Shown: in pieces, positions 12,347-61,399 of the stretch
Layout of the letters: each line of letters begins with the position of its first letter
Numbering within the stretch: position 1 is the stretch's first letter
Sequence record: PQ850628.1
Source of the DNA: Escherichia phage StefiGeyer_Bas88
Reading direction: 5' to 3' (one strand)
Length of the DNA stretch: 64,000 bases
Notes under the pieces: generated by a model
Databases searched by the model: none
What the model saw: only the letters and a program-made list of their open reading frames with translations
What the model was told of the DNA's origin: nothing
Made by a program: the position numbers and the translations under genes

Positions 12347-15300
12347 ATGGCTAACTTAAAACCGTGGGAAGAAGCTTCTAAAAGCCCTGCGTATTTGAAT
12401 GCCTCCCCTGAGCAACAGTCTCAGATGCGAGAACAGTATAAAGCAGCGGGTGGAACGATTCCTGAGGCTGCTCCAGCTCCTAAACAAGAAGAGCAACCGG
12501 GGTTGGTTGGTGATTTTGCCCAAGGTGTGTCCAACGCTATTCAATCAGGTGGTGCAAACATTGCAGCTAGTGCTGCTAGAGGTATTGGTGGATTAGTTGA
12601 GATTGGAGAAAATCTAGCTGGTACACAGACAAGTTACGGTAAGCGTATTCAAGACAACTCTAAAAACTTACTAGAAGAACGTCTCTCTCAAATCGAAGAT
12701 GGTGTAGGTAAATCTGTAGGTCAGTATGCTGGCGTTGCCGCTGATATTGGTCTTACGGTTGCTAACCCAGCTGTAGCTGCTGCTGTTATTGCAGCTCGTG
12801 AAACAGGTAGAGCTTATGCAGACCAAACTCCAGAAGAGGGTGAAGAGAAGTCTGTTCTTGATGCTGGTTTAGTTGGTGGTGCTAACTTTGCAGCTCAGAA
12901 GATTCTTCCGGGGATGACAGGCACTGCTTCTACTACTCTAGGTCGTGTTGGTCAGAGTGTAGCATCTAACGCAGTGGCTGGTGCTAAAGGTGGTGCTCTT
13001 GTAGGTGCTGCTGAAGCACAGAACAAATATGGTGATGACACTACTCTTGCTAATATTATTGAAGGTGCTGTAGAAGAAGGTGCGATGGGTGCTGCTTACG
13101 GTGGGGCTATTGGTGGGGTTCATGGATTGATAAGTCGTCCTAGTCCTCAAGTCTTTGACCGTACTCCAGAACACGTTAAGACTGACATTGCCGCTGAAGA
13201 TGAAGCTATTCGCTCAGCTAAAAATGCAGACGAACTAAGAGAGGCTTACTCTAAAGCTGATAATGCTAACACAGCTTCTGCTCTTAATCTCCTCGATGAG
13301 AACGGTTTCCGTGTTACTGATGCTGTGGCTATGGACTCTCCTGCTGCTCAGCGTATCCTTAATACTGATCAAAGTCGTGCTGAGAAGGCTGCTACTATTC
13401 TGGAAGATCGTTCTAATGTTCCTGGTTTAAATCCTCTTGCTGCTCCTAATAAGAAGCAAGGTAAAGCTAACGCAGACAACGAACATAACCAGAAACAAGC
13501 TGTGGCAATGAAAGATGCAATGGCTGATTATACAAAAGACAACACTAAATCTTTGTCTGATGTTCTGGATAATCTTGATCGTGAATTAACAGCTGCTCGT
13601 GCCAGTGGTGATTTTACTGGTAGTGCTATGGACATTAAGAATCGTACCCAAGCAGATCGTGATTTTATTGATGCTTATAAGACTTTCTATAACGAAGCTA
13701 ATCGATTCAAAGCTCGTGATGGTGAAGACTTTAATAACTTCATAGAGAAAGCTACAGAGCTTCAGAAACTAGCTGATAATGTATCCCCAGAAATGAAAAC
13801 TGCTATTGGTGGTTTGAAGAAACTTAAAGGAATGCCTGAAGGTTTCAACCCAATCCAAGATGCTTTCACTCTGAATAACACAGCTAAGTTGATGAGTAAT
13901 CAAGACCGTGGTTGGACTTCTCTGACTGCTGATGGTTTTAAAGAAGCTGCTCCTCCAGTTCTGATTAAGAATCCTCTTGGTGCTGCTAAGCATGTTCTTA
14001 ACCGTTTCCGTTCTGACCGTGCTCGCTCTCAACGTGAAAGCCAGCAGGCTGCTAACAGTGAAGCTATTCGTTCTCTTGCTCGTAGTGATATGGAAGTAAC
14101 TCGTGCTCGTGCTCAGGCTGATGAAGCCCGTGCTGCGATGGAGAAAGAACCTGAAGTTGATGACATTAAATTTAAGACTCAAAATGACATGGAAATCGAA
14201 CCGGTTCGGGAGCCTTCTGCTACTACTGTGACGGAAGAAATTTCCTCTCCAGAAACCTCTCCTTTAACTGCTCGTGATTTGGTCGCACAGAGACGTGCTT
14301 TGAAGGAAGCTGAAGCTAGACGTCAAGAAGCCGAAGCTAACAAGGTTCAGGAAGAACCAACTCCAGAGCCAGTTCCACAAGAACCAGTTACTACCGCAAG
14401 GGATTTAGTTGCCCAGCGTCGTGCTGTTGCAGAAGCTCGTAAACGTCAAGAAGCAGAAGAGGCTAGCAAGGCTGCTGAGAGCGTTCCTGAGGAGCCTATC
14501 GTTCAAGCCGAGCCATTACCTACCCGTGCTCCTAAAGCTCCTGAGGTTGAGCCTGAGCCTGTTAAACCAGCTACTGGAATAGAGCGTCTGGCTGCTATGT
14601 CAAGTGCTGCCCGTCAAGCTACTAAAGATCGTGCAGATCGCTTTGCTCGTTCTCTGTATACGGCAGGTGCTAAGGCTAAAGCCACAGCTGAGAACTTCCT
14701 TTCTTATAAAGGTGACCCGAAAGAGTTGATGCGTCGTATCCGTCAGGAAGACCAAGCCAACAATGCTGAACGTCATGCTGAGATGGCTCGTAATCAACTT
14801 GCTTCTCAACAGGGTATTGCTGCTGCTAAGTCACAACGTGTTCGTTCTTCGTTTGCTGATTGGGTTAAGGAACGTGGTCTACCTTCTGATATTGCTACCA
14901 AGGCATTACGTGCTGAGGAGAAAGGTATTGGTGGGAACGTGACTAGTCTAGACTCACTGAAGCGTAGGTCTGAACGTCTGTATCAGAAACAACGTGATGA
15001 TGAATTTAATAGGATGTATGAAGAAGCTCTTGCAGAGAATAAGAAGCTTGATAAAGCTGATGCTCCTAAGCTGGTTGACCAGAAGAAAGAGTTACACAGC
15101 GAAATCAATTTACTTCTTGATGCAGAGCCATTACGTCCAGCTCAAAAAGATGCTATGCGTAAGTTGATGGAAGACTTTGTAGATGGGAAGTTTAAAGCTT
15201 CAGAGAAGGCTGGAAGGGAAGATGCTTTGGAAGTGGGACAGATGAAGGATATATGGGATGGCTTCATTAACACATATAACCGTGAAGTTAACATGTTCAA

Positions 15301-16765
15301 CAAAGCTAATAAGAACTCTCAGTACGAAGCAGCAGCTAAACATTTGCAAGCACGTCAAGAACGTCTTGAGACGCTCCGTAACAGGGCTAAAGCTCGTAGT
15401 GATGCCAAGGCAGCAATAGAGACAGAAAGACAGTCTCTCGAGGCTATAGCGGCTCAGAAATCGGAGATGGAGAACCTGTTGAAAGATTTACCAGAGTCGG
15501 TACGTGAGTCTCAGGAAGGTCGTACACTGAAACAGTTAGCAGCTCACCACGATAAGAACTCTCCTGTACCACCGGAGCGTTTCCGTAGTATTATCGAACG
15601 TATCCACAACGCAGAAAGTGATTACATTGACCGTAAGCGTCGTCTCACTGAAGCGGAAGAAGATGCTCGAGAAGCTAAGTGGAATAAGATGTACGAACAG
15701 GCGGAAGAGATGAACCGTAAATACGACATTGATTCCCGTGTACAACGTGACAAGAAGCTCAAAGAAGCTCAGGAAGCAGAGAACGATCGCATGGCAATAC
15801 AACGCCAACGTGATGACATTCATAAGCGCCTGATGCGTTCTATGGAGGATAAAGGGATTCCTAAAGAAGATGCAGAAGTCTTTGCAGGTTCTTATATGGA
15901 TAACCGTTACTCTCTTCTGGAGAAACCTATGACTCCTACTGAGCACCAGAATGCTCGTTCTCGTATTGAATCTGATATTTCAAAGTTTGCTAAGGATTTT
16001 GAGAAGATGACACCTATCGAGAAAGATATTGCTAAGGCAACTGGTGACATGGATGGTAAGGTAGAGGTGGATGCAGATACTTCGAAAGCTATCGAAGATG
16101 CGAAGAAGGTAGATTCTGAGTTGAAGAAACTTCAGGATGAAGAGTTGGAAATGGAGAAAGTTCGTTCGGCATTGCCAGAAGATGAAAGATCTCAAGCCTC
16201 CTCTGATATACTGGAAAGCATTAAGAAGCAGGAAGATGACTTTGCTAACAAAGCAGAGAAAGCTTTTATCGAAGGGAAAGACTTGCAGGAGCTGGCTAGT
16301 GTAGCAGAGGTTCTAGATAGAGTTCATGGTGCTGACAAGGCTGGTAACAATCGTCGCTTTGTACGTGCATTACAAACTGCTGCGGAGAACAAGAAACAAT
16401 ATGGAGATAATCCAGTGGCTTGGTTTAGTGCTGATGATTACTCTGCTATTGCGAAACTTGGTGCTGCTTCAGCGGGTGGTAACAAATCTAGAGCACTGGA
16501 GAAAATCTTTGGTTCTACTGCTGAACAAGCTAAAGGGAAACTTTTAGGGCGGGATGATGTAGCGAAGATTAGACGTGTGATTGAAGAGAATCCTGATGTT
16601 AAGATTCCTTCTTACAAGACAACTACTCGACAAGAGTATTTACAGTTCTTGGAGAAGTATAATGACGAGGGAGAATTGAAAGTCAAACGTGGTTCTCTGT
16701 CTGACAAGTTGGAGAGGAGTAAGCGTCAAGCTAAACTCCGTGTTAGAGTTCGAGCTAAGGAGTAA
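12347..16765 (+). CDS. giant internal virion/ejection protein with charged coiled-coil core
   Basis: 1472 aa; long E/K/R/A-rich helical region; internal protein repeat TARDLVAQRRA(L/V)..EA..RQEAE; Pro/Glu linker. Confidence 0.45.
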   Translation: MANLKPWEEASKSPAYLNASPEQQSQMREQYKAAGGTIPEAAPAPKQEEQPGLVGDFAQGVSNAIQSGGANIAASAARGIGGLVEIGENLAGTQTSYGKRIQDNSKNLLEERLSQIEDGVGKSVGQYAGVAADIGLTVANPAVAAAVIAARETGRAYADQTPEEGEEKSVLDAGLVGGANFAAQKILPGMTGTASTTLGRVGQSVASNAVAGAKGGALVGAAEAQNKYGDDTTLANIIEGAVEEGAMGAAYGGAIGGVHGLISRPSPQVFDRTPEHVKTDIAAEDEAIRSAKNADELREAYSKADNANTASALNLLDENGFRVTDAVAMDSPAAQRILNTDQSRAEKAATILEDRSNVPGLNPLAAPNKKQGKANADNEHNQKQAVAMKDAMADYTKDNTKSLSDVLDNLDRELTAARASGDFTGSAMDIKNRTQADRDFIDAYKTFYNEANRFKARDGEDFNNFIEKATELQKLADNVSPEMKTAIGGLKKLKGMPEGFNPIQDAFTLNNTAKLMSNQDRGWTSLTADGFKEAAPPVLIKNPLGAAKHVLNRFRSDRARSQRESQQAANSEAIRSLARSDMEVTRARAQADEARAAMEKEPEVDDIKFKTQNDMEIEPVREPSATTVTEEISSPETSPLTARDLVAQRRALKEAEARRQEAEANKVQEEPTPEPVPQEPVTTARDLVAQRRAVAEARKRQEAEEASKAAESVPEEPIVQAEPLPTRAPKAPEVEPEPVKPATGIERLAAMSSAARQATKDRADRFARSLYTAGAKAKATAENFLSYKGDPKELMRRIRQEDQANNAERHAEMARNQLASQQGIAAAKSQRVRSSFADWVKERGLPSDIATKALRAEEKGIGGNVTSLDSLKRRSERLYQKQRDDEFNRMYEEALAENKKLDKADAPKLVDQKKELHSEINLLLDAEPLRPAQKDAMRKLMEDFVDGKFKASEKAGREDALEVGQMKDIWDGFINTYNREVNMFNKANKNSQYEAAAKHLQARQERLETLRNRAKARSDAKAAIETERQSLEAIAAQKSEMENLLKDLPESVRESQEGRTLKQLAAHHDKNSPVPPERFRSIIERIHNAESDYIDRKRRLTEAEEDAREAKWNKMYEQAEEMNRKYDIDSRVQRDKKLKEAQEAENDRMAIQRQRDDIHKRLMRSMEDKGIPKEDAEVFAGSYMDNRYSLLEKPMTPTEHQNARSRIESDISKFAKDFEKMTPIEKDIAKATGDMDGKVEVDADTSKAIEDAKKVDSELKKLQDEELEMEKVRSALPEDERSQASSDILESIKKQEDDFANKAEKAFIEGKDLQELASVAEVLDRVHGADKAGNNRRFVRALQTAAENKKQYGDNPVAWFSADDYSAIAKLGAASAGGNKSRALEKIFGSTAEQAKGKLLGRDDVAKIRRVIEENPDVKIPSYKTTTRQEYLQFLEKYNDEGELKVKRGSLSDKLERSKRQAKLRVRVRAKE

Positions 16766-47900: not shown

Positions 47901-48063
47901 AACTTCTCCTGTTTATCACATTGATTGGTCAGCCAGTTGTAAGCCCCTCTGTTGTTCTTGCTTAACTCACAAGATGCAAAAGAATAGGTTCTGACAAACC
48001 CCACGGTGGCTAAGCAAATAAAGATTGCTGCCAATAAGAACTTAACTTTCAACTTATTATCCA
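47899..48063 (-). CDS. small membrane/exported protein (not in ORF track, <60 aa)
   Basis: Translates to MDNKLKVKFLLAAIFICLATVGFV...; stop overlaps the next ATG. Confidence 0.3.
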
Positions 48064-48269
48064 TACAACCTCTTCTTTGAACTTAAAAAAGGACTCTCCT
48101 AAGAGAGCCAAGCTTTAAGGCCAATTAAATAGATATCACCCAATATCTGTGGATAACCTGCTCTTAAAATATTCTATCCGACGGATGTTCGAGGACTATT
48201 CCTCTCCCTAGCATCGGCCCCATACGGGTAAGATTAAATTAAGTTTAGGTTAGTTGAGCCAGAATAGCT

Positions 48270-48305
48270 CACATAGCCCTCTGATACTCACAAGGGCTAT
48301 AGATG
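48270..48305 (-). repeat. conserved post-stop hairpin element (copy A)
   Basis: ATAGCCC...GGGCTAT stem; about 37 nt near-identical to 53479..53518. Confidence 0.5.
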
Positions 48306-48557
48306 TTACTCTGTGGCTCCGTCAAAGCGAAGGATTGCTGTTGGAACAGGGATTACAACCATGTCAATCTCTAAACGGAAAAGATGTCCTGTACTTAGCT
48401 GAACTGCTGTTACAGGTTTAGCGATACCACCAACAGATGCTGAGGGGATTCGAATAAAGAAATCCCCCGGATATTCCGTTGCACGAAATACATCTCCCGG
48501 TGACATATCCTTTACTTGGATAATTGATTCAGGAGGGGTTTTATTAGCAATTTGCAT
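48306..48557 (-). CDS. small protein, PGDxF family
   Basis: SPGDVFRA motif shared with five other small ORFs. Confidence 0.4.
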   Translation of the reverse strand: MQIANKTPPESIIQVKDMSPGDVFRATEYPGDFFIRIPSASVGGIAKPVTAVQLSTGHLFRLEIDMVVIPVPTAILRFDGATE

Positions 48558-48790
48558 TACAGACCTTTCTTAGCACGATCTTTGGCAGTTTTACCAGTGC
48601 GGATACGATGGGAAACATTAACCAGCTCACCACCTTCGACGATGGTCACGCTTTTATTTTTCGCAATATCAAACACAGATTTCTCTGTGCCGCCCAGACG
48701 AATCTGGCGAGGTTCGCTGAAGGTTTGGGTTGATTTGGACTGGAACTGGAACGGCTGGCGGATGGCATCAATTGCGCTAACTTTAGACAT
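48557..48790 (-). CDS. hypothetical protein
   Basis: 77-aa ORF. Confidence 0.3.
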   Translation of the reverse strand: MSKVSAIDAIRQPFQFQSKSTQTFSEPRQIRLGGTEKSVFDIAKNKSVTIVEGGELVNVSHRIRTGKTAKDRAKKGL

Positions 48791-48818
48791 GTTTCTATTA
48801 CCTTATATTAAAGAGAGA

Positions 48819-49232
48819 TTAAACAACGAATTGGAACGCTTCGTATCCAAACTTATAAGAGAAGTCGTGCTTAAACTTCACTACACGACCACGATCACGG
48901 AAAGATTTCAGACGGCTGCTGAACCCAGCCATTGGCTCAGGGTCAATAGGACTACGAATCTTCATAGCTACAGAATGCAGCTTGAAGCGTTTACCAGTGC
49001 TACAGGCCATCATCACATACTCCATACGAGTAGTCCAGATGTTGAGCACCATGCTTGTTTTCTCCGCTGACCAACCAGTCTTACGGGCGATTTCCTTATG
49101 GATGTTAAGCTCCAAAGGAAGAGGGAATTGCTTGTTGAATGAAGCCGGATAAAGCTTGACCAGAAGATCAATGTTTTCTTTATACGTGAGGTAGGCCAAT
49201 TTCTTGCTTACGTTGGGGAATTTCCCAGACAT
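48819..49232 (-). CDS. ProQ/FinO-domain RNA-binding protein candidate
   Basis: KKLAYLTYKENIDLLVKLYPASFNKQFPLPLELNIHKEI...MVLNIWTTRMEYV...GKRFKL aligns to the ProQ/FinO N-terminal domain pattern. Confidence 0.4.
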   Translation of the reverse strand: MSGKFPNVSKKLAYLTYKENIDLLVKLYPASFNKQFPLPLELNIHKEIARKTGWSAEKTSMVLNIWTTRMEYVMMACSTGKRFKLHSVAMKIRSPIDPEPMAGFSSRLKSFRDRGRVVKFKHDFSYKFGYEAFQFVV

Positions 49233-49430
49233 TTTTGAAGCTCCAAAACAGCGCCGAAAAGAGAGGCGTCATAGTAGCTAAAGGGAGGAGAGAAGAGGGC
49301 TTATTTACTTGCCTTTTTCTGTCCGTTAATGTACCAGATAACTGAGCCATCAGGCTGTCGTTGACCGAAGCCTTTCAAGTTAACCATTTCTTCTTCAGAG
49401 TAGGCACGTTTTCTCACTGATTTTCTCCTG

Positions 49431-49688
49431 TCAATAGAAGGTGTGTGTAGAGTCGTCGTTCATAGATAACCAAACAAAGAAGACAATCACACAGAAAGCA
49501 ATAATACCGAGAATTGCAAGGATTATAGTGTTAGCTAATGTGATATCTAACACGCTTTGCAGATACATAAAGAACTGTACGACACCACATATCATTAGCA
49601 CGACACCAACAACAATGAGGAGCCAATATGTGCAGAGAAGGGCTGCATCCAATAGTGACACATATTTTGGATGATCTTTACGTTTCAC
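49431..49688 (-). CDS. small membrane protein (2 TM)
   Basis: Two long hydrophobic helices. Confidence 0.35.
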   Translation of the reverse strand: MKRKDHPKYVSLLDAALLCTYWLLIVVGVVLMICGVVQFFMYLQSVLDITLANTIILAILGIIAFCVIVFFVWLSMNDDSTHTFY

Positions 49689-49944
49689 TAACCTTCTCCA
49701 CTAAATCCAGAGTTGCTGATTCAAATACAACACCAACTGGCATATTAGGTGCCATATTACGAACGTACCCACTCTGCATAGACACGGCTCGAGAGTATTC
49801 AGAACCGTTAGAGCTTTTGTTTACCTTCATGTAAAGGGTTTGTTCTTTATCTTCTTTAAGGGTAAAGAAAGAGCCGGGAAGAATCCCCTGAACAGTCAGA
49901 GGGATATCTGCAACATGAGTCTTATTGATAGTAAGAACTGTCAT
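49678..49944 (-). CDS. small protein, PGDxF family (divergent)
   Basis: GILPGSFFTL ... LYMKV pattern. Confidence 0.3.
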   Translation of the reverse strand: MTVLTINKTHVADIPLTVQGILPGSFFTLKEDKEQTLYMKVNKSSNGSEYSRAVSMQSGYVRNMAPNMPVGVVFESATLDLVEKVSET

Positions 49945-49947
49945 TGC

Positions 49948-50202
49948 TTATTCCTTAATAATTGCTTCAGCTTTAATAGGAATAACAGCAACATCTTTAC
50001 GAGGCGCTGTCGCTCGGCCTGTGTTAAGACAGGCTACAAGTCTATGCTCGTCCGCACCCTTAATGCACAAGCGAGTGGAGAACTCTGTAGAGAGTAAGAT
50101 GTATAAATCACCATCTTCACTGTTAGGGTACATGAAGCAATCCCCAAGTCGCAAAGCACTGAGAGGTATTGAATTTTTACCTGCTGGCATGTTAACTTTC
50201 AT
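49948..50202 (-). CDS. small protein, PGDxF family (divergent)
   Basis: ALRLGDCFMY ... LYILL pattern. Confidence 0.3.
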   Translation of the reverse strand: MKVNMPAGKNSIPLSALRLGDCFMYPNSEDGDLYILLSTEFSTRLCIKGADEHRLVACLNTGRATAPRKDVAVIPIKAEAIIKE

Positions 50203-50478
50203 TTAACCACCTTTAGTTATGGACCAATTTATGAGAGAACTCTCGGAAGAATGCTTTCATAAATAGGGGGAGGGGACGAATCCTCCCATATCCTATTAAT
50301 TAATGTTGCATGTAAGACCTAACAATCCGATGCTGTAGTGGATAGCGTAAAATGCTTACCGGCATTAAACCCAGCCCATGAGGGGCTTATGTGATTAAAA
50401 TGCTCAACATTGAGCGGTTAGTTGATAGGAGATCTGAAGTCCTATCTCAAAGGACTCTCGTAAGAATCCTTCACGATA

Positions 50479-50733
50479 TTACTTAGTAACAAAGATTGTC
50501 ACCTTATCCATTACCCAGCCTATCAACATAAGGAAAGGTAAGAAGAGGATAAAGATCAGCATAAAAGGCCAGAAGAATATCACCGTCCAAATAGAATATT
50601 CATCAGGCTTACCACTCCATGAGGAATGGAAGAAGTTGTAGAGTGTATTGGTTTTGAAGCACCATTTAACTACAATGGCTGCTAACCACCAACCAATAAC
50701 ATAAATCAGGAGGACATACGCTGCTGTAACCAT
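50479..50733 (-). CDS. small multi-TM membrane protein
   Basis: Three hydrophobic segments, Trp/Phe-rich. Confidence 0.35.
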   Translation of the reverse strand: MVTAAYVLLIYVIGWWLAAIVVKWCFKTNTLYNFFHSSWSGKPDEYSIWTVIFFWPFMLIFILFLPFLMLIGWVMDKVTIFVTK

Positions 50734-50960
50734 TCACCGTTCCATTGATAGTTGCGAGTTACCACGTTTCCGTGGATAAGGAAGTGCTGGCGGCGAAGGA
50801 TATCTTTAACGTTGTAATAGGCAGCGTTTCCGATATGACCTTCTTTGATAAGCCAGCGCAGATTACGAATATCAACCAACAACATCTTTACTTGCTGTTG
50901 GCATGAAGTTTGAGCCGCTGTTTCAAGTAGAGCTTTCGTATCAGAATAATGACCAGACAT
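50706..50960 (-). CDS. hypothetical protein
   Basis: 84-aa ORF. Confidence 0.3.
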   Translation of the reverse strand: MSGHYSDTKALLETAAQTSCQQQVKMLLVDIRNLRWLIKEGHIGNAAYYNVKDILRRQHFLIHGNVVTRNYQWNGEWLQQRMSS

Positions 50961-50961
50961 A

Positions 50962-51288
50962 TCACCACTCCTTACCTGTTGTTGTCACAGAGCCACCACA
51001 CAGCTCACCACGAGAGATGAAGTCATAACGTGACCAATCACCTTGCGTCTCCATGTCACGCTCTGCATAAGCCTTCTCGTCAACAGCACCGCCATTGGAA
51101 CAAGAAGCACCAGCATAACGCATATCAATTTCTCCACTAGGAATCTTCTCTCCGCTATGCCAACGGGAAACACAGACACCTTCTACAGATAATGCACACC
51201 ACCCATCAGGACGATGCTGTACGCAGCCTGTAAGAGCTACACAGGTGATAAAGATACAGGTTAAGGTAATTACACCACCCCAGCTCAT
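50962..51288 (-). CDS. lipoprotein (Cys-rich)
   Basis: Signal peptide ending in lipobox LTGC. Confidence 0.45.
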   Translation of the reverse strand: MSWGGVITLTCIFITCVALTGCVQHRPDGWCALSVEGVCVSRWHSGEKIPSGEIDMRYAGASCSNGGAVDEKAYAERDMETQGDWSRYDFISRGELCGGSVTTTGKEW

Positions 51289-51425
51289 GATCCCTCCTGA
51301 AGCGCCTTACGGCGGCTATCTCGCCAAGCCATCCATAGGTAGGTTTTAAGTTCTTCTCTTTCTTCTTCGCTGAACAGAGGAGAAGTAAAGATATCATCGA
51401 ACCACTCATTAAACTCAGGGGTCAT
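51285..51425 (-). CDS. small ORF coupled to lipoprotein gene (not in track)
   Basis: GGAGGG RBS, MTPEFNEWFDD..., stop overlaps the next ATG. Confidence 0.3.
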   Translation of the reverse strand: MTPEFNEWFDDIFTSPLFSEEEREELKTYLWMAWRDSRRKALQEGS

Positions 51426-51443
51426 AAACCCTCCTACGTTGAT

Positions 51444-51520
51444 TGGTGCACCCTACAGGATTCGAACCTGTAACCAACGACTTAGAAGGTCGCTGCTCTG
51501 TCCAATTGAGCTAAGGGTGC
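51444..51520 (-). tRNA. tRNA-Arg(UCU): tRNA-Arg, anticodon UCU, CCA encoded
   Basis: Folded by hand: acceptor GCACCCU/AGGGUGC, D-stem GCUC/GAGC, anticodon stem GCGAC/GUCGU with loop CUUCUAA, T-arm ACAGG-UUCGAAU-CCUGU, 3' ACCA. Confidence 0.85.
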
Positions 51521-51529
51521 TGAGTTTGT

Positions 51530-51739
51530 TTAACTGAAGATACGCAAGGCCACATCGTGACCGATATGACCGGGAACTTTATGCTGTTCTATTTTCAAAC
51601 AGCGTTTACAGATACGAGATACACGAGACTCTTTTCTCTCGACTGGAGTGTCTTTAGCGTGAGTGATTTGAAGGTTTTCAGTGATCACCCACTCGTGTTT
51701 ACATCCAGAATCTTCGGGCTTTTTCTTACGAAAGAACAT
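51530..51739 (-). CDS. small zinc-finger-like protein, MIKW/HEW family (copy 3)
   Basis: Internal start MFFRKKKPEDSGCKHEW ... CKRC; related to two upstream unannotated ORFs. Confidence 0.35.
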   Translation of the reverse strand: MFFRKKKPEDSGCKHEWVITENLQITHAKDTPVERKESRVSRICKRCLKIEQHKVPGHIGHDVALRIFS

Positions 51740-51747
51740 AACACCCC

Positions 51748-51912
51748 TTAAATCAGGTCTGTTTTCTTGTGCAGACCACACACTTTACAGCGAGAGTAGA
51801 TACGCAACCCTTGTCGCTCTCTGTCAGTAAGTTTATTTGTGATCGTCAGTTCATAAGTAGAAAGATCTTCCCACTCATGGAAATGAAATAGACGTTTGAA
51901 CCATTTAATCAT
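51748..51912 (-). CDS. small zinc-finger-like protein, MIKW family (copy 2, not in track)
   Basis: MIKWFKRLFHFHEW ... CKVCG; AAGGA RBS. Confidence 0.4.
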   Translation of the reverse strand: MIKWFKRLFHFHEWEDLSTYELTITNKLTDRERQGLRIYSRCKVCGLHKKTDLI

Positions 51913-51921
51913 AATGATTCC

Positions 51922-52083
51922 TTAGATTACATCACGATGACTAACATCACCACACACCTTACACTGAATAACGTAACGTGTACCCTTGTCATTGTTCCCA
52001 TCTGAATCTGTATAGACCAGAGGACGGGTGTTAATAATCTTCCAATCATGACAATGGAAGACACGCTTTAGCCACTTAATCAT
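51922..52083 (-). CDS. small zinc-finger-like protein, MIKW family (copy 1, not in track)
   Basis: MIKWLKRVFHCHDW ... CKVCG. Confidence 0.4.
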   Translation of the reverse strand: MIKWLKRVFHCHDWKIINTRPLVYTDSDGNNDKGTRYVIQCKVCGDVSHRDVI

Positions 52084-52084
52084 A

Positions 52085-52342
52085 TTAAGCACACGCCGGT
52101 AGTTCGATTAACTGAGGAGTACGACAAGGACCCTCTTCATACACACCGATTAACGTTGGCATGTAAGGCCCAGCGCACTGGTATTCGTCGAACAGCTCAT
52201 TATAAGTAGGCTTCCACTTCCACGCCCACACATAACCCATTCGATCAATAGCAATGTAACGAGTATTCAGAGGAACCTGCATCATTACATCACCAACTGC
52301 TATTACTTTCGTAATAACTGCTGCTCGGAAGTTTGTCTTCAT
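52085..52342 (-). CDS. hypothetical protein
   Basis: 85-aa ORF. Confidence 0.3.
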   Translation of the reverse strand: MKTNFRAAVITKVIAVGDVMMQVPLNTRYIAIDRMGYVWAWKWKPTYNELFDEYQCAGPYMPTLIGVYEEGPCRTPQLIELPACA

Positions 52343-52590
52343 GGCGCTTTAATCTCAATCTGAACGTTGACAACAAATACAGTATGGTTTGCACTGTACA
52401 CCGAAGTGCCTATGATTGGCTTGTCATCGCTGAGGATTTCAACAGCGTGCTCAAGGTTAATCTTCAGATGAAGACGACCTGATTCCATGAAGAAATCACC
52501 AGCACGTATCTCACCAAACTTGGCTGGCACACCGATAGAAGGTATCAGTATGTCAGTACGACCTTTACGGTCAAATAAACGATTGAACAT
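52339..52590 (-). CDS. small protein, PGDxF family
   Basis: EIRAGDFFMESGRLHLKI. Confidence 0.35.
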   Translation of the reverse strand: MFNRLFDRKGRTDILIPSIGVPAKFGEIRAGDFFMESGRLHLKINLEHAVEILSDDKPIIGTSVYSANHTVFVVNVQIEIKAP

Positions 52591-52599
52591 ATCAACCCC

Positions 52600-52809
52600 T
52601 TATGTGATATCAACCTCAAACCAACAGGTAAGAGCTTTTTCGTTGTTGCGCTTTGGTTCAAAGGATTTAGTAACTGATAACACCCGTCGCTGTTGTCCAT
52701 CAAACCAGATAGTTTCATTTCTTTCAGGAAGTAGGTTGTGTGCAGCACAAACGATTTCACCTAGCACAACCTGTCTGCCATCTTGTTTACGAACTAAACG
52801 AATGTTCAT
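52600..52809 (-). CDS. hypothetical small protein
   Basis: 69-aa ORF. Confidence 0.3.
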   Translation of the reverse strand: MNIRLVRKQDGRQVVLGEIVCAAHNLLPERNETIWFDGQQRRVLSVTKSFEPKRNNEKALTCWFEVDIT

Positions 52810-52851
52810 ATCAACCTCTCTTATTAGTTTAAGTAAGAGCTACCTCTTAAT

Positions 52852-52883
52852 TAAAACAACAAAGGCCACCCCGAAGGGCAGCC
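52852..52883 (-). terminator. rho-independent terminator (- strand)
   Basis: GGCUGCCC-UUCG-GGGUGGCC (two G-U pairs) followed by a U-rich run. Confidence 0.4.
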
Positions 52884-52888
52884 TCTTA

Positions 52889-53086
52889 TTAAGCACTACG
52901 CAACTTGTTATTCAAGAAGCGATCATCTGCGTTATAGATGAATGCAAAGAATAATTCTTTGGCTACATCCCTGTCACAATTAAGGCATTTAGAAACCTGT
53001 AACAACAGGCCATTGCGACTGTTAGGATGATCAATTATCGCAAGACGAATAATCTCACGAATACCAACATCATGCTCAGCCGCCAT
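52889..53086 (-). CDS. hypothetical small protein
   Basis: ORF with ATG at 53086. Confidence 0.3.
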   Translation of the reverse strand: MAAEHDVGIREIIRLAIIDHPNSRNGLLLQVSKCLNCDRDVAKELFFAFIYNADDRFLNNKLRSA

Positions 53087-53478
53087 AGAACCAATCACCT
53101 TGACGTTTACGGATGTTAGTTGTCAGACGAAGCATGGCAGACTCAATCTTCAGAGCACCATTTGCTACTGCATCCATACGTTCAGGACGGTTCATACGCT
53201 TGGTTGACTTCTTCATAACGTTCTCTCTTTGTTAGTGGAGGCAGGGTTGCCAGTTAATATAAAGGGAAGCCCTACACGTTAAGGCTTCCGCTTGTACAAA
53301 CTGTCGAGAACTTTCTACCCCTAGATTGTTCTCTATCCCAAACCGATACATACCCCTACATATCGGAATGCCATTCGAAAATTAACAGGTTTTAGTCTAT
53401 CACCGGATGTTTGAGACGAGTCTCGCCCTAGCGGTGAGCCATATGGCATTGAGATTATAGTTAATTGAGGAACATCCT

Positions 53479-53518
53479 CACATAGCCCTCTGATAAGCAC
53501 AAGGGCTATAAGTTGATG
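53479..53518 (-). repeat. conserved post-stop hairpin element (copy B)
   Basis: Near-identical to 48270..48305, again directly after the stop of a PGDxF gene. Confidence 0.5.
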
Positions 53519-53743
53519 TTACTTGTTGGTCAGTCGTACATTAGGCACAAGTCTGATTGCTGCTGTTTTCCTCTCTCCAGTAACCTTACCAGTAGAGAGA
53601 TTAACGTAATAAGCAGTGACTTCACCATCACCAGCTGTACGCATATAATAACTGCTTCCAGTTCTGTCAAACTGAAAAACGTCTCCCGGCTTTACATCAC
53701 CAAGAGTTGTGACGCTTTGCTTTTTATCAATATCAATCTTCAT
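53519..53743 (-). CDS. small protein, PGDxF family
   Basis: DVKPGDVFQF ... VPNVRLTN. Confidence 0.4.
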   Translation of the reverse strand: MKIDIDKKQSVTTLGDVKPGDVFQFDRTGSSYYMRTAGDGEVTAYYVNLSTGKVTGERKTAAIRLVPNVRLTNK

Positions 53744-53974
53744 TTAACCACCAATATTCGTTACTTGTACATTAGGTACAGAGATAACTTCATGATCTTC
53801 AGGTATCTGGAACAAAGTCCCCTGACCAAGACCAACGACACGGTGCATACCCTGCACATAGGTGTCTGTCTTTAGGTAGAGGTGTTCAGTGTTATTTTGT
53901 AATCGGAATACGTCACCCGGACGTAACTCACTAAGCTTTTTAGTAACAACTTCAGAGGAGAGATTGATTTTCAT
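53744..53974 (-). CDS. small protein, PGDxF family
   Basis: ELRPGDVFRL ... VPNVQVTN; tandem with 53519..53743. Confidence 0.4.
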   Translation of the reverse strand: MKINLSSEVVTKKLSELRPGDVFRLQNNTEHLYLKTDTYVQGMHRVVGLGQGTLFQIPEDHEVISVPNVQVTNIGG

Positions 53975-54162
53975 TTGATCAACACCAAATCAGTACGACG
54001 TTCGAAGGAAGGAGAGGATTCACCATTCCACTGAACAAGATAACAGAGAACACCATCAATCGTTGTTCTCCGACGAATAACACCTGTTTGAGTACCGCCA
54101 ACAAGGCGAACAGTGTGACCAGTGGTGAACTTAACCCTTGAGCGCATCCTCTGTTTCCTCAT
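53971..54162 (-). CDS. small basic beta-rich protein (start uncertain)
   Basis: C-terminal VKFTTGHTVRLVGGTQTGVI...CYLVQWNGESS looks like a small SH3/KOW-like domain. Confidence 0.3.
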   Translation of the reverse strand: MRKQRMRSRVKFTTGHTVRLVGGTQTGVIRRRTTIDGVLCYLVQWNGESSPSFERRTDLVLIK

Positions 54163-54436
54163 TCTGGCGTTTAATTTCTTCAGTGAGTTGCTTATTGAGA
54201 TCTTGAATACGCTTAATCTCCCAACCCAAAGAAGCCAAACGATCATTACGTGCTTCAATTTGCTCCTGCATCTTGACCAACTTGGAACGAATATCAGCAT
54301 TAAAGACTTCCTCTTGCTTAAGAAGGAACTCATAACGACGCTTCCAGCTTGCTGACTTATTACTTAAAGCAATAAATCCTAGAGTAGAAATCGTTACAGT
54401 GAGTACGAGAAGGAACTTATAAACCTCTAAAGTCAT
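54131..54436 (-). CDS. membrane-anchored coiled-coil protein
   Basis: N-terminal TM helix then charged coiled coil. Confidence 0.35.
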   Translation of the reverse strand: MTLEVYKFLLVLTVTISTLGFIALSNKSASWKRRYEFLLKQEEVFNADIRSKLVKMQEQIEARNDRLASLGWEIKRIQDLNKQLTEEIKRQNEETEDALKG

Positions 54437-54637
54437 ATCTTTATCCTCTTAAAGTAAGATATTATAAGAAATATTATTTAGAATTTATTATTTCTAAACT
54501 TAATTTCTATCAATAATTTTCAGAGGTCTATATACAGTCATTACCTCTGGTTCCGAATCACTACCACTTCTTACAGAGAAAATCATAAGTAGGTGATTTA
54601 TAAGGGAATTTAGTTTGTCAATCTTGGCACCTATGAA

Positions 54638-55858: not shown

Positions 55859-56068
55859 TTAATCAATCAAACTAAACGACTTCCAGCTACGCGTAATTGC
55901 TACCCGTTCGCCATCAAAGAGAACACTTACAGAGATCAGTTTACCGCGACAACTGGATACCGTGGTAATACGTCCGGTTAATGCCTTGCCTTTATTCAGG
56001 TAGTGATAGCGGACACGACGCCCTAACAAACGAGTAGCTTTCTTCTCTAACGTGCTTAAGCTGGTCAT
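55859..56068 (-). CDS. hypothetical small protein
   Basis: 69-aa ORF. Confidence 0.3.
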   Translation of the reverse strand: MTSLSTLEKKATRLLGRRVRYHYLNKGKALTGRITTVSSCRGKLISVSVLFDGERVAITRSWKSFSLID

Positions 56069-58435: not shown

Positions 58436-58468
58436 TCATTATGAATCATCTCGTTTAGCGTGTCAACC
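58436..58468 (-). promoter_or_regulatory. sigma70-like promoter P1
   Basis: - strand reads A-tract, TTGACA, 17-nt spacer, CATAAT. Confidence 0.5.
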
Positions 58469-58604
58469 ACTTTTTTAAATCTTTTTCTCGTCTATTCTTT
58501 CGAATGACCAGTTAATCACGTATTGGATTAACAAGATTGTAAGCGGTTGCGCTTAACTTTCTGATTCATATTTTTAAAGAGCGGTGTTTCTTACTGCTTA
58601 GTGA

Positions 58605-58637
58605 ACATTCTATCAGAGTGTTTCACCTTGTCAACTC
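58605..58637 (-). promoter_or_regulatory. sigma70-like promoter P2
   Basis: - strand reads A-tract, TTGACA, 16-17-nt spacer, TAGAAT. Confidence 0.45.
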
Positions 58638-58836
58638 TTTTTATCATCTTCTTTTATTCTATTCCCTTATCTCGCTTGAATCTTTGCGAAAGGGCAAGAT
58701 GATAAATTGTTAAAGAGCGTTAAGTCTATCGCCGTCTTCCTCGGCGTCATGCCTTGAGTGTTCCCACTCCTTCCAGTTTAAGCCTTTTTACATGATGCTA
58801 ATCATCTATCTGGAAGTGTTCTGTACTGCTGAGATC

Positions 58837-58868
58837 ACATCTTATCATAATGATTCGACGTGTCAACA
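58837..58868 (-). promoter_or_regulatory. sigma70-like promoter P3
   Basis: - strand reads A-tract, TTGACA, then a weaker -10 (TAAGAT). Confidence 0.35.
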
Positions 58869-61221: not shown

Positions 61222-61399
61222 TAATCCTTTCGGTTGATGTGAACTACAAACTACAATCGCAACTATATATTAAAGGAAAAACTTGTCAACCACTTATTTT
61301 CAAACTATTTCATAACTCACTGAATTTAAAAGGAATTTAATTTACTAAACTTTCTTACTCAGAGGTACAGCTTACTGACAGAATGTTACTTTATAACAC

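Follow-up and report, generated by a model that had tools for sequence, protein, structure and literature searches.

An expanded family of small early-region proteins with a predicted SH3-like fold in Escherichia phage StefiGeyer_Bas88 and related phages

The minus strand of Escherichia phage StefiGeyer_Bas88 (PQ850628.1; the window analysed here is a stretch of 64,000 nucleotides, nt) carries between positions 48306 and 53974 six small genes, designated A to F, whose products of 74 to 88 amino acids (aa) are considered members of one expanded protein family on the basis of profile comparisons, firmly in the case of A, B, C, E and F and probably in the case of D. The six open reading frames (ORFs) had been singled out as a family in an original prediction made from the DNA letters, which located all of them correctly; its size range of 69-88 aa was not borne out. 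The genes are the following:

48306-48557, minus strand: member A, 83 aa; the last gene ahead of a terminator-like hairpin
49678-49944, minus strand: member B, 88 aa; motif ILPGSFF; ortholog group of phiEco32 gp95
49948-50202, minus strand: member C, 84 aa; motif LRLGDCF; ortholog group of phiEco32 gp97
52339-52590, minus strand: member D, 83 aa; motif IRAGDFF; syntenic counterpart of phiEco32 gp109
53519-53743, minus strand: member E, 74 aa; motif VKPGDVF; ortholog group of phiEco32 gp114
53744-53974, minus strand: member F, 76 aa; motif LRPGDVF; ortholog group of phiEco32 gp115

The region from 48000 to 54500 is 92-96% identical to phiEco32-like podophages, among them TH43, TH42, ECBP2, Bas87 and SU7, in alignments that cover 87-99% of it. 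The window is Suseptimavirus-like and belongs to the phiEco32 group (Gordonclarkvirinae), ECBP2 and SU7 being classified in the genus Suseptimavirus of this subfamily.

Relatedness of the six genes

The six ORFs are genuine genes under purifying selection. All are annotated coding sequences in relatives, the records being those of Bas87, SU7 and ECBP2 taken together, each has a Shine-Dalgarno-like site and tight or overlapping junctions, and in ortholog comparisons the ratio of nonsynonymous to synonymous substitution rates (dN/dS) lies between 0 and 0.29 (0.04-0.24 for A, 0.12-0.17 for B, 0.03-0.08 for C and 0-0.08 for D; F, E and A are the fastest-evolving). The start of E directly abuts the stop of F, and this tandem pair shows the common C-terminus VPNV(R/Q)(L/V)TN that had been noticed in it, with E ending in LVPNVRLTNK and F in SVPNVQVTNIGG. 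B and C are also in tandem, with 3 nt between the stop of C and the start of B, and the start that follows D overlaps its stop.

The family had been proposed on account of a shared (L/I)(K/R)xGD(V/F/C)F block. In this strict form ([LI][KR]xGD[VFC]F) the block fits C, D and F, but A, B and E are reached by a relaxed pattern; likewise, the label PGDxF given to the family is literal in A, E and F but not in B, C and D. When all 395 window ORFs with a length of 40 aa or more were scanned on the two strands, the relaxed form, [LIVM]xxG[DS][VFC]F, had exactly six matches, one in each member at residues 17-28, as against 0.30 predicted by shuffles. A lack of statistical support for the motif had been named as the outcome that would speak against the family; this count and the profile tests described below supply such support. 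The residues closest to invariance are G20 and F23 (numbering of F), present in 6/6 window proteins. In member A the motif is present a second time: ten residues beyond PGDVF (residue 20) comes PGDFF (residue 30), in the position of the conserved Y-x-K strand. Either a short repeat within the protein or coincidence may account for this doubling.

Using F as phmmer query against the 395 window ORFs, the top five matches were the other five members, and a hidden Markov model (HMM) built from E, F and A retrieved B (1.3e-4) and C (1.7e-4); the match that followed stood at 0.87. In order to avoid circularity, a foreign-genus profile was built solely from proteins of phiEco32, MN05, Salmonella phage 7-11 and N4. 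Compared singly with this profile by hhalign, A, B, C, E and F gave probabilities of 96.6-98.4% and P values of 5e-15 to 7e-10 over 62-75 columns (A, 96.8%, P 2.1e-10; B, 96.6%, P 6.2e-10; C, 96.6%, P 6.9e-10; E, 98.3%, P 2e-14), and 20 other proteins of the early region used as controls against the family profile had P values of at least 0.046. The six members fall in separate PHROGs (6570, 12612, 7832, 22099, 9955 and 16423, for A to F). The PHROG matches of A, B, C, E and F have E values of about 1e-22 to 1e-33, including phrog_6570 for A (3.6e-22, with cross-matches to 12612, 7832 and 16423), phrog_12612 for B (6.7e-30), phrog_7832 for C (6.1e-22) and phrog_9955 for E (2.9e-26), and the PHROGs of these five cross-match one another's profiles as well as PHROGs 7431 and 8365. 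Judged by these sequence comparisons, A, B, C, E and F are firm homologues. There is a negligible chance that the motif reflects a fortuitous resemblance of unrelated small ORFs, or that the ORFs are not genes, a reading that draws on the low pairwise identity of the paralogues (15-29%) but is refuted by the phmmer, HMM, motif-count, control-protein and foreign-genus profile tests, by purifying selection, by annotation in relatives and by 411 related clusters in public data.

Member D is a probable, divergent member of the family, to be placed in a subgroup with gp98, gp109 and ECBP2_0111. Its score in the search of the window ORFs was 9.3 bits (E 0.024 among 395), which none of 2000 shuffles reached, and as a single sequence against the family profile it obtained P 1.6e-4 in hhalign, at least 2.5 orders of magnitude beyond the 20 control proteins. 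A profile of its orthologs, aligned to the family profile, gave E 3.3e-7 and a probability of 93%, and the two were in register at the GDFF strand. The best match of D in phiEco32 and in MN05 is the syntenic gp109, a firm member (E 0.005-0.007), and D shares with the gp98/gp109/ECBP2_0111 subgroup a short beta2-beta3 loop and the loss of the distal-loop glycine G52. It is unlikely, against this evidence, that D is no true member and has a short GDFF-containing segment in common with the family by chance or convergence. In favor of that reading, D matches phrog_22099 alone, without cross-matches; the probability over the single-sequence tests was 15-51%, with 15-18% against foreign-genus profiles; the ortholog-profile alignment is restricted to residues 16-56; the distal-loop glycine is missing; and an AlphaFold2 (AF2) model built on a five-sequence alignment gave a predicted local distance difference test (pLDDT) value of 40 and no confident fold. 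In addition, D has an 11-residue N-terminal extension.

Fold, conservation and spread of the family

The fold of the family is confidently predicted to be a six-stranded, SH3-like small beta-barrel. Member F was used as query for the structure model, and AF2 run on a 45-sequence alignment returned six strands with a mean pLDDT of 83.6 and a predicted template modelling score (pTM) of 0.70. Independent models of the E and B orthologs, of other Kuravirus paralogues and of N4 gp21 deposited in BFVD superpose on the F model with template modelling (TM) scores of 0.70-0.88 (0.77 for the ECBP2 ortholog of E and 0.72 for the SU7 ortholog of B), and the F model also matches BFVD entries for uncharacterised proteins of 70-90 aa from phages of Morganella, Proteus, Serratia, Vibrio, Erwinia and Pseudomonas. 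Foldseek comparison of the F model with the PDB gave nothing at E <= 1e-3, and a PDB sequence search with two profiles found no relative. Scans of the six proteins against Pfam, NCBIfam and PADLOC gave nothing meaningful, and no recurrent family emerged from a Pfam scan of 111 relatives.

Conservation was computed over 23 diverse phage members. The conserved hydrophobic positions (I3, L14, L17, V22, F23, L32-Y33-L34, V46, V47, L49, V63 and V71) are buried, the conserved glycine turns are G20 and G52, and the remaining positions have column entropies of about 3 bits with variable loop lengths; member C, for instance, has a longer beta2-beta3 loop. A signature made up of G20, F23, a Y/F-x-K strand, the distal-loop G52 and Val63 is near-invariant in 111 representatives as well as in the 23 phage members. 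No conserved polar cluster was detected across these 23 members, which makes an enzyme or a single shared ligand site unlikely, and the isoelectric points (pI) span 4.9 to 9.6 (the latter in member E), arguing against a uniform role in nucleic-acid binding or DNA mimicry. Since conservation is limited to the hydrophobic core and two glycine turns and the exposed positions are free, non-enzymatic binding modules are most likely.

The family proved larger than originally noted, with 5-9 copies per genome across Gordonclarkvirinae. Local profile searches found nine copies in phiEco32 (the tandem gp95-98, gp104, gp109 and the tandem gp113-115), eight in MN05, seven in ECBP2 and four in Salmonella phage 7-11; the window has six, Bas87 and SU7 five each, both lacking an ortholog of E, and N4 one (gp21). 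The phiEco32 members matched the window-type profile with E values from 8e-14 to 1.8e-3, the next match being at 1.9. ECBP2 has an extra copy that the window does not have, ECBP2_0111 (ECBP2 locus 15234-15473; E 4.8e-13), directly upstream of its F ortholog. Neighbour-joining orthogroups follow gene order (B with gp95, C with gp97, D with gp109, E with gp114 and F with gp115), which indicates that the duplications predate the split of Kuravirus and Suseptimavirus; the clade of member A is found only in Suseptimavirus-like genomes. From the sequence relationships, the family appears to have arisen by repeated tandem duplication and to have gained and lost copies later, and both presence/absence and copy number differ even between very close relatives. 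Two phiEco32 proteins were considered and rejected as members: gp91, the positional counterpart of A, and gp79, an RNA polymerase regulator of similar size that was not among the matches of the family profile in that phage.

An exhaustive HMMER search of 1.84 billion representatives yielded 411 clusters at E <= 1e-3. Stand-alone proteins of no more than 100 aa make up 121 of the best 145 representatives, and at least 11 true two-domain fusions with two full copies were found among the top representatives. Long matches (470-3153 aa, with multiple partial stretches) were judged spurious as a group; among those scanned, three have Pfam domains of repeat or unrelated multi-domain proteins (RCC1, aBig_2 and GH94) and two others have no Pfam match. 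All named relatives are called "hypothetical protein", and word-indexed searches returned only close Kuravirus-type relatives. The metagenomic settings are strings of small phage genes, one of them with two adjacent paralogues. On a phage-like metagenomic contig of 122 kb (sample 3300059473; L008 158-397) a 79-aa member follows another gene for 79 aa and lies directly upstream of a match to PF26128 (Gad2, an anti-Gabija nucleotidyltransferase), with a pentapeptide-repeat protein and an RNA ligase close by, so that this neighborhood is accessory or anti-defence-like.

Early genomic setting and neighboring genes

In phiEco32 the early class, which was defined experimentally, consists of the far-right, leftward-transcribed genes and is transcribed from sigma70 promoters, and nearly all genes of this class in phiEco32-like phages are annotated as hypothetical (PMC8948821, PMC9965538, PMC4281155). 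Two features of the window give the context of the six genes:

58438-58866, minus strand: three clustered sigma70-like promoters pointing leftward to the family, matching 10-11 of 12 consensus positions (promoter scan)
48092-48109, minus strand: terminator-like hairpin just downstream of member A (terminator scan)

The family genes sit downstream of these strong promoter-like sequences at 58.4-58.9 kb. The trio fits within 430 bp and corresponds to the early promoter triplet known from SU10 and phiEco32; a fourth near-consensus sequence, also leftward on the minus strand, lies at 61262-61289 and completes the set found at 10-11 of 12 positions. We infer that the promoters at 58438-58866 are active in StefiGeyer_Bas88 and probably drive early transcription. 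At the other end, SU7 has an annotated terminator at the place equivalent to the hairpin at 48092-48109, which likely marks the end of the early gene block; 27 terminator-like hairpins were observed in the region against 12.6 expected. Based on synteny with the phiEco32 early region and on the sigma70-like promoters, the family is probably transcribed early by the host sigma70 RNA polymerase.

Other elements of the early gene string were also noted. A tRNA-Arg gene (anticodon TCT; 51444-51520, minus strand) is located within it, as is likewise the case in phiEco32, SU7, ECBP2 and MN05. Just 5' of the tRNA there is a second tandem family of tiny genes (51530-52092, minus strand) comprising ORFs 51748-51912 (54 aa) and 51922-52092 (56 aa), to which the C-terminal part of 51530-51781 probably belongs as well. 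They share the motif W(F/L)KR(L/V)FH(F/C)H(E/D)W ... CK(V/R)C(G/L) and look, from this pattern, like a small zinc-ribbon-like module; Pfam gave only a weak PHD_4 match.

Two beta-rich ORFs of 69 aa on the minus strand, 52600-52809 and 55859-56068, are not members of the family (P 0.29 and 0.81). The former is present in Bas87 and has no ortholog in SU7 or ECBP2, and the latter is merely 56% identical to its ECBP2 counterpart, a patchy presence and a divergence that point to mosaic turnover of the early region. The 120-aa ORF at 53971-54333 (minus strand) is probably over-extended, as Bas87 annotates just a 58-aa product corresponding here to about 53971-54147. This shorter, beta-rich ORF has an SH3/Tudor-looking C-terminus and a weak Mtf2_C match, and was rejected as a candidate since it gave no match to the family. 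The 101-aa gene overlapping 53971-54333 (54131-54436, minus strand) is called "DNA helicase" in several relatives; its Pfam matches are weak and limited to models of coiled-coil type and of unknown function, by which this label looks unfounded.

Proposed function and comparison with known systems

The explanation that best accommodates the evidence is that these diverged SH3-like paralogues, 17-30% identical to one another, are early, non-enzymatic binding modules with diversified targets, to which a probability of about 0.5 is assigned. According to this proposal a single scaffold would offer many surfaces, each paralogue docking, in the opening minutes of infection, on a distinct partner among the macromolecules of host or phage, and docking would serve host takeover or the neutralisation of defence. 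The genes would be transcribed early by the host sigma70 RNA polymerase within tightly packed, translationally coupled strings. Tandem neighbors such as E and F might act side by side, and the existence of two-domain fusions suggests that they may act together. The conserved scaffold, the free surfaces, the large number of copies, tandem duplication, indels and the early location all fit diversified binding modules. The effector role suggested in the original prediction stands in part: the location in the early region, the pattern of core and surface conservation and the variation in presence/absence fit diversified effectors, but its host-takeover or anti-defence component was left unsupported, with no match to a characterised protein, no conserved functional site and purifying selection.

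Several observations weigh against the proposal of diversified binding modules. Binding, which we infer together with its targets, is considered most likely by analogy of fold and from absent catalytic residues, and in the absence of a conserved polar patch no shared binding site is defined. Purifying selection acts on the orthologs, whose dN/dS values give no indication of an arms race at the level of the whole gene, and early expression in StefiGeyer_Bas88 itself is deduced from the genomic setting. The literature search retrieved no experimentally characterised member, and family members were not reported to co-purify with RNA polymerase from phiEco32-infected cells (PMC12276001). Finally, the top fold matches are RNA-binding domains of ribosomal proteins or translation factors.

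The last point leads to the main alternative, namely that the proteins bind nucleic acids or ribosomes and, at an early stage of infection, reprogram translation, the nucleoid or the stability of RNA, for which the SH3-like domain of ribosomal protein L2, the KOW-like domain I of EF-P/eIF5A, Sm/Hfq and HspQ would be the models. This is doubtful but deserves attention, particularly for basic members such as E and, in phiEco32, gp96 and gp109; the wide range of pI within the family speaks against a uniform role of this kind.

A narrower form of the binding-module explanation, rather improbable, would have its members act as antitoxin-like or inhibitor-like neutralisers of host abortive-infection toxins or of restriction and other defence proteins. 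Gordonclarkvirinae and relatives of N4 are reported to be markedly resistant to restriction-modification (RM) and other defences by no known mechanism, and the BASEL authors found in Gordonclarkvirinae no known genome-modification pathways or restriction inhibitors (PMC11990801). Both of these resistant groups carry the family, a metagenomic relative lies directly upstream of a Gad2-like gene and copy number varies among close relatives. This evidence is correlative throughout, no positive selection was detected, and the same authors favor DNA modification (by a dCTP deaminase and a nucleotidyltransferase) as the cause of RM resistance (PMC11990801). Of the defences tested in that study, only Fun/Z inhibits Gordonclarkvirinae, and just the genus Kuravirus (PMC11990801); beside this it may be recorded that Suseptimavirus-type genomes carry clade A and that the window is devoid of counterparts of gp96, gp98, gp104 and gp113. 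In its most ambitious version, which is a long shot, the family would be a natural library of SH3-scaffold binders inhibiting different defence or restriction proteins, with tandem neighbors and fusions acting as pairs. If true, such a library would explain the RM and defence resistance of Gordonclarkvirinae (5-9 copies) and of N4-like phages (gp21).

It is very unlikely that the family members are Tudor-like factors that bind RNA polymerase, of the type of the CarD/TRCF RNA-polymerase-interacting domain or the UvrD C-terminal domain, and modulate host transcription. The idea draws on similarity to CarD and UvrD. Mass spectrometry of RNA polymerase purified from phiEco32-infected cells reported only gp36 and gp79 (PMC12276001), and a match to the CarD_TRCF Pfam model was found neither in the six proteins nor in the 111 relatives. 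A role in the virion is also unlikely, since no early product of 8-10 kDa is listed in the proteome of the SU10 lysate.

Gordonclarkvirinae are abundant coliphages with a broad host range that are used in therapy studies, and no explanation exists for roughly two thirds of their genes, nearly all the early ones among them. The assignment of 5-9 early genes per genome to one SH3-like family turns a block of "hypothetical proteins" into one tractable question, and the family, common to N4 and 7-11 and to around 400 clusters in public data, has neither a Pfam model nor a solved structure. The genes also form a defined set that can be deleted or expressed in the BASEL phages; one of these, Bas87, can be grown on E. 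coli K-12 in which the O16 O-antigen has been restored. The family would supply new small inhibitors in the event that its members bind diversified targets among host factors or defence proteins; otherwise, a clean family definition for annotation remains.

With respect to known systems, the closest counterparts are phiEco32 gp95-98, gp104, gp109 and gp113-115 and the orthologs in MN05, ECBP2, SU7 and Bas87, which agree with the window proteins in family, size and early-region synteny; the difference lies in the set of copies, as the four phiEco32 genes mentioned above have no counterpart in the window, which has clade A instead. The phiEco32-type members are distributed over PHROGs 6570, 12612, 7832, 9955, 16423, 7431, 8365 and 22099, all labeled "unknown function". 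N4 gp21 (YP_950499, 74 aa) is a homologue by sequence (E 1.7e-12 to 7e-14) and by model (BFVD A0MZB1, TM 0.70), with the layout of the family (MKV...G.CF...YYMK...VNLQTGHL...V.PV). It differs in being a single copy, from Schitoviridae, located among gp17-gp25 and not in a sigma70-driven early block; the literature search found no paper addressing its function. Four proteins of Salmonella phage 7-11 (Grimontviridae), gp110, gp112, gp131 and gp133, are members by HMM (E 5.8e-10 to 1.1e-4). They are likewise multi-copy and occupy a rightward early-type region, whose expression class is a prediction, and are more divergent.

FeoA and the C-terminal domains of DtxR/IdeR have an SH3-like fold in common with the family; FeoA (PF04023) gave no match at E <= 10 in the six proteins and was absent among the families listed for the 111 relatives at E <= 1, and no feoB or metal-regulator context surrounds the phage genes. 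The C-terminal domain of ribosomal L2, domain I of EF-P/eIF5A and the KOW of Spt5 belong to RNA-binding proteins of larger size in which basic or KOW motifs are conserved, whereas the phage proteins are stand-alone, of variable charge and devoid of KOW signatures. The antitoxin VapX has no sequence relationship with the family, and no toxin gene adjoins the family genes: a Pfam scan of the neighbors 48557-48790, 52085-52342, 52600-52809 and 54131-54436 detected no family above threshold, and the neighbors are other small early genes. The RNA-polymerase-binding, Tudor-like domains of CarD and of the UvrD C-terminus are also unrelated in sequence. Membership in the FeoA, KOW and CarD families is ruled out by the absence of an HMM match, and in antitoxins by the gene context.

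The literature search found no description of the family, of its SH3-like fold, of its expansion or of the link to N4 gp21. Taken together, the family corresponds to an existing but unnamed and uncharacterised set of PHROGs, and multi-copy small early genes and stand-alone SH3-like binders, the two elements that it combines, are both familiar kinds of thing.

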